DNA from: Oligoflexales bacterium
Lineage (GTDB): Bacteria > Bdellovibrionota_B > Oligoflexia > Oligoflexales > JAPPIL01
DNA length: 64,000 nucleotides
Direction of reading: 5' to 3'
Assembly (NCBI GenBank): GCA_965215515.1
Contig: OZ244057.1
Location: 1,536,001 to 1,600,000, forward strand
Positions 28,826 through 30,463 of the stretch are shown piece by piece. The translations under genes were made by a program, and so were the position numbers. The notes beneath the pieces were generated by a model. It made no database searches, had not been told where the DNA came from, and saw nothing but the letters and a program-made list of their open reading frames with translations. Numbering within the stretch: the stretch's first letter is position 1; every line of letters starts with the position of its first letter.

Positions 28826-30463
28826 CTATTTCCGCAGCAGCATCTTGCGGGTGGTGGTGCTGTTGTCGGCGGACAGGGTGTAGAAGTAGACACCGCTGGC
28901 GACAGACTCGCCTTGGGTATTTCTGCCGTCCCAGTGGGCGGCACGGCTTTTGTCTCGGTACAGACCAGCGGGTTGGTCACCCAGGGCGAGGGTGCGCACT
29001 AGCTGTCCGTTCAGCGCGTGGATGCGGATCGTCACCTGTGCAGGTTCGGCCAGCTGGTAGGGTAGCCAGGTCTCGGTGTGGAAGGGGTTGGGGTAGTTGG
29101 CTAGCAGGGTGGTTGTTTGTGCGGGGGTAGTGCGGGCGAGCAGTTGTTGCAGGACATGTAGCCCGCGGCGATGGGCGGGGTGTGTCGCTGTCCGTTGCCG
29201 TGCCGTCTCGAGCCAGCGGCTCACTTGGCGGTTAGTTACCAGTCGTGTTGGGGTGGGGGGCTGAGGGGCATCGGCAGTCGTCTCGCCGAAGGCAGCAGCG
29301 ACGCGCACGAGATCCAAGATATCGACCGTGCCGTTACCGTCGATATCCGCGCTGTTTTTGCCTGTCTTGCCGAAGTTATCAGCCACAAGCACTAAATCTA
29401 AAATGTTGACCGTGCCGTCGCCATTGAGATCTTCGGCAACTGCTGGAGGTGTGACTGCGGCTAGCAGTTTAACCATGTCGGTAAGGTTTGCTTGCTGAGC
29501 GATGTCTAAGGCCCGCTGACCTTGCTTGTTACGAAGTGCAGGCTCGATGTCTCGGCGGGCGAGTAGGCGTTCTACGATTTCTGTTCTCTTATATATAACG
29601 GCGTAGTGCAGCGCCGTCATACCGCCGTTATCTTGGGCGTTGATGTCTATTTTGGGATCGTCCTTGAGTAGTTGCAGTGCATATCTAGGTGGGCTGTGCT
29701 TGACTTCAAAGATCAACGGATACTTGGGACGACAGCCCAGAGGGGCTTTTTCTAGCACATAGTCGGGGAAAAAACAGTCTTCGTGGTCAAGATCCTCATA
29801 TAAAAACTTGTAGAGCCAGATGATGCCGCGCTTATCGTCTTCTACAAGTCTGATCTTACCATCTCTGTATGAATGAGATAGATGAGAGGACATAATTGAA
29901 GGAGGTTGTTTGCCCACAGTGCTGCTCAATCCTCCCGTACTAGTCGGGGGTATATGTAAGCCAGTCAAGTAAGTATCATCCAAACCAAAGGCATGGCCGA
30001 TCTCATGGGTAAGGGATGATATAAGTCGGCTATTTACCGTTGTTCCCTCGCGTAAAAAAACCTCTGGTGGGTGCGTGTTGCTTAGCCGCGCATTTGATCT
30101 CCCGTCGATACAGTGAAACGTAACTCTTAAGTCTGAGGAGGATAGGTCAGCATTCTGCCTGTAGCGAAAATCATTGACCACAGGGTCGGTTGTGTTTAGC
30201 TCCCGCACGGGTTGTAGCCACAGTTGCAGGGCTGTGCCTATCGCCTGTTCCAGTGCTTTCGCATTACTGCGCTTCTCCGCGGAGCAATCGTCACCATACC
30301 TGTACGAGATGTCCCATCGCTCCTTATGCACTCTCCTCATCAGAATATGATAGCGGGTTAGATATTGGTCAAACGCGATAAATTTAGTGGCAGAGGGCTC
30401 GGGTATCTTGCAGGACACAGTACCTGACAACATAAAGCAGATGATCGCTAGTCTGTTATACAT
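28826..30463 (-). CDS. Zn-metalloprotease + ankyrin + dockerin-like + FlgD/T9SS-like C-terminal domain protein
   Basis: Lipoprotein-like signal, HEIGHAFGLDD..SIM (metzincin-like), ankyrin GMTALHYAV, two DxNGxGTVxILDLV repeats, LLANYPNPF...WDGRN...SGVYFYTL...RKMLLRK. Confidence 0.9.
   Translation of the reverse strand: MYNRLAIICFMLSGTVSCKIPEPSATKFIAFDQYLTRYHILMRRVHKERWDISYRYGDDCSAEKRSNAKALEQAIGTALQLWLQPVRELNTTDPVVNDFRYRQNADLSSSDLRVTFHCIDGRSNARLSNTHPPEVFLREGTTVNSRLISSLTHEIGHAFGLDDTYLTGLHIPPTSTGGLSSTVGKQPPSIMSSHLSHSYRDGKIRLVEDDKRGIIWLYKFLYEDLDHEDCFFPDYVLEKAPLGCRPKYPLIFEVKHSPPRYALQLLKDDPKIDINAQDNGGMTALHYAVIYKRTEIVERLLARRDIEPALRNKQGQRALDIAQQANLTDMVKLLAAVTPPAVAEDLNGDGTVNILDLVLVADNFGKTGKNSADIDGNGTVDILDLVRVAAAFGETTADAPQPPTPTRLVTNRQVSRWLETARQRTATHPAHRRGLHVLQQLLARTTPAQTTTLLANYPNPFHTETWLPYQLAEPAQVTIRIHALNGQLVRTLALGDQPAGLYRDKSRAAHWDGRNTQGESVASGVYFYTLSADNSTTTRKMLLRK

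Follow-up and report, generated by a model that had tools for sequence, protein, structure and literature searches.

Two metalloprotease-ankyrin proteins with different C-terminal tails and a possible modular protein family common to their host lineage and Candidatus Poribacteria

Secreted enzymes that end in a sorting C-terminal domain (CTD) or carry a dockerin, and ankyrin-repeat effectors, are the known kinds of protein behind two genes in the 64,000-nucleotide stretch of contig OZ244057.1 analyzed here (positions 1,536,001 to 1,600,000 of the forward strand; hereafter, the window). Copy 1 (28826..30463) is an open reading frame (ORF) of 545 amino acids and copy 2 (60961..62055) one of 364; both lie on the minus strand and encode predicted lipoproteins with a protease head followed by ankyrin repeats, and they end in different tails. 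We lean towards the view that both proteins are members of a single large family of exported proteins in which a zinc metalloprotease is joined to ankyrin repeats, that this family evolves fast and has had its modules repeatedly recombined, and that it is common to Poribacteria and to the small-genome lineage of the host. If this is true, secreted effectors are rebuilt by recombination, with the export signal and the tail forming a stable frame in which the catalytic head is exchanged, and the occurrence of type IX secretion system (T9SS) sorting domains and of dockerins outside Bacteroidota raises the question of what machinery reads such tails there. The short conserved C-terminal tag of copy 2, TTWGxLK, belongs to no described family and, together with the frame-and-head pattern of recombination, would be new.

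In the T9SS of Bacteroidota, the CTD is described as a signal for translocation across the outer membrane that is then cleaved, with the cargo anchored to anionic lipopolysaccharide (PMC8545088 and PMC9143113); the T9SS is described as confined to Bacteroidetes (PMC5445135). In type A cargo of the T9SS, a Sec signal at the N-terminus is followed by a passenger enzyme and then, at the C-terminus, by an Ig-like beta-sandwich of about 90 amino acids, an order that recurs in copy 1, the CTD of which exceeds the cut-off of the sorting-domain profile TIGR04183 and matches the C-terminal region of PorU in its modeled fold. However, the host of copy 1 does not belong to the Bacteroidota, judging by its PheT; the copy 1 signal is of the lipoprotein type rather than the signal-peptidase-I type; the CTD fits FlgD_ig better and stays under the cut-off of Por_Secre_tail; and in the family the CTD always stands behind a dockerin pair and a two-helix linker, with which it makes up a fixed unit of about 204 amino acids. 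By domain logic, the nearest example of T9SS cargo is presumably karilysin, the matrix metalloproteinase (MMP)-like protease of Tannerella forsythia.

Like the type I dockerins of cellulosomes, the dockerin region of copy 1 is a duplicated calcium-binding loop-helix that scores above the Dockerin_1 cut-off, and cohesin domains (PF00963) are common among proteins with a tail of the copy 1 type. Unlike in cellulosomes, the passenger is a protease-ankyrin protein and not a carbohydrate-active enzyme, and the dockerin is internal, with the CTD after it. The heads of both copies share the zinc motif, the conserved Met turn and an MMP-like fold with matrixins (M10) and other metzincins, whereas the third zinc-ligand position of copy 1 is Asp instead of His (HEIGHAFGLDD) and the head is joined to the ankyrin repeats via a Cys-containing hairpin. 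Asp in this position is found in snapalysin-type enzymes. Finally, the two proteins resemble the ankyrin "eukaryotic-like proteins" of sponge symbionts in that they are predicted to be exported ankyrin-repeat proteins of bacteria related to sponge-associated lineages; what sets them apart is a short ankyrin module of about 2-3 repeats, its fusion to a protease and the presence of sorting tails. According to PMC13747020, single eukaryotic-like proteins, when expressed, can let bacteria evade phagocytosis by the sponge.

Architecture of the two proteins

An earlier note, made from the nucleotide sequence of the window, had described paralogous proteases with a shared protease-ankyrin core and different C-terminal tails, and the alignment of the two proteins confirms the shared core and the unlike tails: there are 145 identities over 341 residues (43%; E = 8e-83), and the alignment ends at the end of the ankyrin region. 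Each protein appears to be composed of four modules, namely an export signal (of a lipoprotein type, L, that ends in Cys or, in other family members, of a type S that ends in ..GF), a matrixin-like head, a Cys-containing hairpin with ankyrin repeats, and a C-terminal tail. The AlphaFold models, computed with family alignments as input, have a mean predicted local distance difference test (pLDDT) score of 81.0 for copy 1, with the domain order as read from the sequence, and of 81.7 for copy 2.

The N-terminal hydrophobic stretch of both proteins ends in Cys, in the context TVSC in copy 1 (Cys18; signal peptide 30410..30463, type L by motif match) and LTAC in copy 2, both being motif readings. 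Compared with the lipobox [LVI][ASTVI][GAS]C, LTAC is canonical, and it is position -3 that makes TVSC atypical; IVSC, IMSC and ATAC occur in relatives. The protease head of copy 1 (residues ~40-228; 29780..30346) contains the zinc motif HEIGHAFGLDD (29975-30007) and the conserved Met-containing turn QPPSIMS. Both heads contain HE(I/V)GHAFGLxD and the Met turn, that is, the combination of HExxHxxGxx(H/D) and Met turn by which metzincin or matrixin-like proteases are recognized, and H153, E154, H157, G160, D163 and M191 are invariant in an alignment of 18 sequences. Foldseek searches with the heads retrieved MMP catalytic domains (E about 2e-5; template modeling score 0.5-0.6, normalized to the target). 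Because both heads score under the cut-off of Pfam Peptidase_M10 (18.4 bits for copy 1 and 14.5 bits for copy 2, cut-off 24), we call them matrixin-like and do not place them in M10. An Atlas look-up of the head returned low scores only (0.76, Peptidase_M10 clusters), which we take as a lead, and a match to snapalysin was weak (E = 0.082). The head of copy 1 is followed by a Cys-containing beta hairpin (DCFFPDY...GCRPKYPLIF) and ankyrin repeats assigned to Pfam Ank_2 and Ank_5 (residues 229-341; 29441..29779), which together probably form the part that binds a substrate or partner.

Positions 28826-29440 comprise the stop codon and residues 342-545 of copy 1, a tail in which the earlier note had seen a dockerin-like pair and the strings NYPNPF and HWDGRN. 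The strings are present within the 3' end of the gene, at 29098 and 28936, respectively, and the dockerin pair (residues 342-392; 29288..29440) is well borne out: residues 344-389 match Pfam Dockerin_1 with 31.1 bits (cut-off 22.9), the best match among solved structures at the sequence level is the cellulosomal dockerin 2y3n_B (E = 2.6e-6), and the duplication is visible in the DNA as a 68-nt direct repeat (29280-29347 and 29364-29431, 74% identical), the only repeat to come out of separate searches of the two protease genes. A disordered spacer and a two-helix linker follow in the model (residues 393-455; 29099..29287), with pLDDT below 50 at residues 395-407 and helices at 411-422 and 429-445. 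The terminal beta-sandwich (residues 456-545; 28829..29098) is of the T9SS type A or FlgD-Ig-like kind according to profile, sequence and fold matches: residues 457-542 match NCBIfam TIGR04183 (T9SS type A sorting domain) with 34.1 bits (cut-off 23), residues 469-534 match Pfam FlgD_ig with 40.4 bits (cut-off 27), and the score against Pfam Por_Secre_tail (PF18962) is 22.6 bits, under the cut-off of 27. FlgD was also found by sequence search of solved structures (E = 6e-5), and Foldseek retrieved FlgD Ig-like domains, with PorU (6za2_A) at rank 50. The G+C content at third codon positions (GC3) is 0.70 in the tail part of copy 1 vs 0.52 in the head.

Copy 2, which probably starts at the ATG at 62050-62052, downstream of GGAGG, stops 17 residues past its ankyrin part, with the final letters ...KGKQTTTWGELKKEE. 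This C-terminal tag (residues 348-364; 60964..61014; ...PVAAKGKQTTTWGELKKEE) has the short pattern KGKxTTTWGxLK, and across all six translated frames of the window there is a single TTWGELK, at the C-terminus of copy 2. The tag is predicted to be disordered (pLDDT below 50), as expected of a short linear tag. A MAFFT alignment placed the tag against the first CTD strand (NPF..ETW); we judged this to be a chance T-W match and set aside a derivation of the tag from a CTD.

Sec export followed by lipidation would bring the enzymes to the cell envelope, where the C-terminal tail would set their final location. Copy 1 may be an outer-membrane or surface lipoprotein, with the CTD conferring surface exposure, translocation or anchoring by analogy to known CTDs, and its dockerin could bind a cohesin-bearing scaffold in a calcium-dependent manner; the TTWG tag of copy 2 might be a short linear recognition signal read by some partner. 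Probable targets of cleavage, for both enzymes, are extracellular or eukaryote-type proteins picked by the ankyrin module.

Relatives of the two proteins and the host lineage

Of 7999 candidates scored in a search with copy 1, 1612 proteins reached E <= 0.001; the tail classes given below are drawn from the best 120 of these 1612 relatives. Three tail classes recur: (a) dockerin, linker and CTD, ending in ..ATRKMLLRK, (b) dockerin only and (c) the TTWGxLK tag. In most relatives that carry it, the whole tail module is 200-207 amino acids long, its length being conserved. Independently, a scan of genomes (one genome per species; the source genome is not among the matches listed) yielded at least 21 confirmed loci. 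Among the matches listed, 14 of the 21 confirmed loci are titled Candidatus Poribacteria. Four protease-ankyrin ORFs lie in three of these Poribacteria loci, L001-L003; they share 36-42% identity with copy 1, and every one ends in (K)L(T/A)TTWGxLK. In the other 11 listed Poribacteria loci, unrelated passenger proteins of 373-1763 amino acids end in a dockerin-linker-CTD module that has 42-57% identity to residues 342-545 of copy 1. Two further loci, L019 from a metagenome-assembled genome (MAG) of Staphylococcus epidermidis and L020 from a Bacillota MAG, match only in the 30-residue stretch of the zinc motif and were rejected as chance hits to a different metalloprotease. In L002, two TTWG-tailed protease-ankyrin genes stand in tandem (5932-8407) on one Poribacteria chromosome; the pair sits among shikimate-pathway genes and efp, as named from ORF N-termini only.

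The tail of copy 1 is widespread. A search with residues 342-545 alone gave 4703 matches among 8000 candidates; the passengers of such tails include WD40/PD40 propellers, leucine-rich repeats, cohesin (PF00963), low-density lipoprotein receptor repeats and others. All three organism-named proteins among the 120 tail matches listed come from Candidatus Poribacteria, which is also the commonest phylum of the two nearest clusters in an Atlas look-up (0.98 and 0.97; dockerin, FlgD_ig, Por_Secre_tail). From the source contig, only copy 1 and the relative P0004 are among the best 120 of the 4703 tail matches. A literature search on Poribacteria and dockerins returned nothing related.

For the tag of copy 2, an alignment with the four Poribacteria ORFs shows T26, T27, W28, G29, L31 and K32 to be invariant, and a profile of the tag run against 1.84 billion proteins gave 25 matches at E <= 0.001 with the tag at the very C-terminus. 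Seventeen of these are family-like, six have unrelated sequence ahead of the tag and two are spurious. Among the six with unrelated passengers, P0379 (259 amino acids, with a signal peptide and no Pfam match) is the sole clearly full-length protein; P0374, P0377, P0378, P0380 and P0381, of 60-93 amino acids, may be fragments. No such C-terminal TTWG tag was described among the matches listed in a literature search.

The earlier note had called both tails Poribacteria-style. For copy 1 this assignment holds, given the 14 of 21 listed loci, the Atlas clusters and the three of three named tail matches. For copy 2, it stands in part, on the strength of the Poribacteria loci L001-L003, all four protease-ankyrin ORFs of which are tagged.

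The window encodes pheS, pheT, mraY, murF, gap, an aroB-like gene and pabB, and PheT was used for the taxonomy check. PheT relatives with 76-80% identity lie on contigs of 2.8-3.2 Mb. Among the 120 matches listed, the best organism-named relatives come from MAGs titled "Pseudomonadota bacterium" (50%) and "Deltaproteobacteria bacterium" (41%), after which matches at about 35% span many phyla; none of the 120 carries a Poribacteria name, in line with the statement of the earlier note that the rest of the window is not Poribacteria-like. The source contig measures 2,180,710 bp, and eight Mb-scale Poribacteria records measure 4.2-7.0 Mb. As far as can be read from these sequences, we are moderately confident that the host is not a poribacterium.

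Exchange of modules within the family

In a maximum-likelihood tree of the core (quick IQ-TREE; 119 rows, after 6 fragments were dropped), the tail classes are interleaved: 26 changes of class are needed, with a possible minimum of 3 and a mean of 56.5 after shuffling. Class a alone requires 22 changes, at least 13 of them forced by well-supported branches, and class b 20, at least 12 of them forced. Because the classes are interleaved, tails must often have been gained, lost or exchanged in the family. The two copies stand apart in this tree: copy 1 pairs with P0004 of the same contig (support 99), and copy 2 groups with the TTWG-tailed relatives P0120, P0110 and P0105 (support 100). One member of the copy 2 group is on a contig of 2,849,281 bp, and the contig of the PheT relative with 80% identity is equally long. 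In the tail tree, copy 1 falls within a separate clade of 25 family tails (support 99), and when 127 generic tails were added (FastTree), the clade consisted of 26 tips (support 95) with no generic tail inside. Since this clade is separate from the generic tails, a recent capture of the copy 1 tail from a neighbor is unlikely.

The export signals vary as well. Across the 119 rows, 23 signals are of type L, 75 of type S and 21 unclear; 18 of the L signals accompany tail class a, 5 class c and none class b. All 18 L-type class a tails are inside the 25-tail clade, and the other 10 family tails, with S or S-like signals, are mixed with generic tails of Poribacteria. On the core tree, signal type needs 17 changes, and an approximately unbiased (AU) test rejected the placement of the 23 L-type cores in one clade (difference in log-likelihood 1344.7; p = 5e-68). 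Unrelated signals are found on cores that are ~90% identical, in the pairs P0023/P0064, P0009/P0042 and P0030/P0029. Furthermore, junctions are visible in individual pairs. P0031 and P0032 show 100% identity until residue 391, which falls within the first dockerin repeat, and from there on their identity, estimated by eye, is roughly 60%. Copy 1 and P0004, compared in 30-column windows, show 30-70% identity as far as residue 230 (about 50% over the head) and 83-100% beyond it up to the C-terminus; the step, from about 50% to 90-100%, puts the mosaic breakpoint at about residue 229, the start of the Cys hairpin, between head and ankyrin repeats. What can be seen to have changed in the host genome is thus the head on a common ankyrin-dockerin-CTD body, or else the body itself by conversion, and not the tail. 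Collectively, as far as sequence comparison goes, signal and tail co-vary as a frame that follows lineage or export route; what lies between the two is exchanged from frame to frame, also inside the host genome.

A set of S-type relatives (P0010, P0013-P0016, P0029, P0031-P0033 and P0042-P0049) has a near-identical signal peptide (MKLLKKMRYIFSILLVV..VHGF) although identity between their cores is no more than about 50%, which suggests homogenization of, or strong constraint on, the 5' ends of these genes.

If the family is indeed common to the two lineages, whole family members, tails included, would have been taken up by the host lineage from the Poribacteria gene pool some time ago; we infer the intake of whole genes because Poribacteria have far more tails of this type, with just two proteins of the host contig among the best 120 tail matches. 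The host lineage would then have added lipoprotein signals and has since, it appears, been diversifying heads by recombination rather than capturing tails. The codon usage of the two genes is like that of the housekeeping genes of the window (distance 0.206 for copy 1 and 0.182 for copy 2; housekeeping range 0.14-0.26), and we therefore do not regard them as recent arrivals.

Several observations weigh against a family shared across lineages and recombined in this manner. The weakest link is the equation of type L with a host-type lineage and of type S with Poribacteria, which is drawn from contig sizes (2.18, 2.42 and 2.85 Mb vs 3.0-9.7 Mb); contigs of 6,252,337 and 6,645,392 bp hold family members together with Poribacteria-like WD40-tail proteins. 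The L/S pairs with ~90% identical cores would be easier to explain by one genome that holds both types, which would weaken the inter-lineage reading, and sharp breakpoints such as that between P0031 and P0032 could be assembly chimeras at repeated dockerin sequence. No rows of the core tree diverge more than the three core homologs titled Poribacteria, whose branches are long. The core and tail trees were computed in quick mode or with FastTree, and the L group tested was set by a motif rule that is independent of the tree, although the rule was written after the tree had been seen. Lipoprotein status is a motif call, with a non-canonical lipobox in copy 1 (TVSC), and the taxonomic range of the family obtained from the genome scan (at least 21 loci, 603 stretches) is a lower bound. 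Finally, the window ORFs scanned contain neither a T9SS component (40 ORFs, NCBIfam) nor a cohesin or other partner (25 ORFs, Pfam); because of this, and because the T9SS is described as Bacteroidetes-confined, the roles proposed for the tails in the host are putative.

The explanation offered in the earlier note, that a non-poribacterial symbiont captured only sorting tags and put different ones on its own duplicated proteases, would fit the Poribacteria-style tails, a host that is probably not a poribacterium, the interleaving of tail classes on the core tree and the higher GC3 of the copy 1 tail. We nevertheless consider it quite unlikely, since Poribacteria have the core too (36-42% identity), again combined with the TTWG tail, which contradicts the capture of tags alone. 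Nor do the copies behave as recent paralogs with swapped tails, each belonging to an old subfamily of its own with relatives of the same tail class (supports 99 and 100); moreover, the copy 1 tail sits in a family-specific clade and not among generic tails, and the mosaic junction in the host genome lies between head and ankyrin repeats instead of at the tail. What survives of the idea of interchangeable cassettes is that modules do exchange, according to the core tree, the AU test and the junctions; the placement of the exchange at the tail does not hold for the host genome.

A different account would treat L, S and all tail classes as paralogs within single genomes, shaped by intragenomic gene conversion and domain loss, with only an old shared origin across phyla. 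Not only do unrelated signals on nearly identical cores fit such a scheme, but also paralogs are known to share contigs (four on one of 47,385 bp; P0075 and P0117, with different tails, on one of 44,007 bp), and the conversion between copy 1 and P0004 occurred inside one genome. Yet all three known family members of the host contig are L-type, no contig size is common to L-type and S-type proteins among the matches listed, the Mb-scale contigs measure 2.2-2.9 Mb for L-type and 3.0-9.7 Mb for S-type proteins, and the family occurs both in Poribacteria-titled MAGs and in a genome with a PheT that is not Poribacteria-like; on balance, we regard purely intragenomic shuffling as unlikely. It is highly improbable that nothing crosses lineages because the pattern is an artefact of chimeric assembly or of mis-binned poribacterial sequence: the sequences of dockerins and CTDs recur many times in such metagenomes and could mislead assemblers, and the P0031/P0032 breakpoint falls inside a dockerin repeat, but the two copies, on a 2.18-Mb contig, are set between ordinary housekeeping genes and match these in codon usage, a third family member is located elsewhere on the source contig, and a copy 2 counterpart is on a contig as long as that of the 80% PheT relative (2,849,281 bp).

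Going beyond the shared family of recombined proteases favored here, one may speculate, with considerable doubt, that a non-poribacterial host with a small genome shares a whole surface-display system with Poribacteria, keeping dockerin-CTD and TTWG frames on enzymes anchored as lipoproteins and repeatedly taking new protease-ankyrin heads from the gene pool of Poribacteria. The dockerins might then plug into cohesin scaffolds of Poribacteria, so that one organism decorates or attacks the other, and TTWGxLK would be a new sorting signal with its own machinery.

Genomic surroundings

Immediately upstream of copy 1, a gene on the same strand (30471..33284) encodes a Cys-rich protein of 937 amino acids with an N-terminal type IV pilin-like methylation motif (Pfam N_methyl; NCBIfam PilA/GspG N-terminus). 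Its stop codon is 7 nt before the copy 1 start (TGA-aggtagc-ATG), and the two genes are probably co-transcribed. A similar arrangement is found at copy 2, where the stop codon of a Cys-rich ORF of at least 644 amino acids, which runs past the end of the window (62065..63999, minus strand), is 9 nt before the gene (TAG-GGAGGaagc-GTGATG); the gaps upstream of both copies contain a Shine-Dalgarno-like sequence. The two Cys-rich proteins are weakly alike (best segment E = 0.025), with the common pattern PEVCDxNT..CC..W.G. The 30471-33284 gene contains three internal 68-nt DNA repeats. No counterpart of the upstream Cys-rich gene was found beside the Poribacteria homologs in L001-L003, and a scan for promoters and terminators around copy 1 gave a signal no higher than in shuffled sequences.

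Just past the pilin-like gene begins a mobile-element-like stretch (33701-53320), the genes of which encode Replic_Relax, a PIN domain, a Schlafen/AlbA-HATPase protein, a methyltransferase, TraK-like and TraE-like proteins, a GspE/VirB11-type ATPase, a helix-turn-helix repressor and an S8 subtilase. From 36 to 44 kb, the GC content is down to 0.41-0.43 and codon usage is unlike that of the housekeeping genes. No tRNA gene or Rfam family was detected in the 64-kb window, so there is no clue to an integration site from this source.

On the other side of copy 1, positions 27499-28740 contain an ORF of 413 amino acids with no family match, most of which is taken up by repeats of low complexity, namely an Asp-rich run, PT/RPT repeats and NSNSNGSGGNDN. 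The NSNSNGSGGNDN repeat derives from 33-nt tandem units at 28087-28218, and long ORFs on the opposite strand span the same repeats. Farther away, at 22816-26441, a phospholipase-D-like protein of 784 amino acids with a signal peptide is encoded with a 4-nt overlap with the end of an upstream gene for a secreted protein of 424 amino acids that belongs to no known family; both genes have a GC content of 0.48, lower than their neighbors. The aroB-like gene (21523-22803) has an N-terminal extension of about 100 amino acids and scores 196 bits against the 3-dehydroquinate synthase cut-off of 305, and a gene for a dynamin-family GTPase (9471-10886) is located between mraY/murF and the GAPDH gene.

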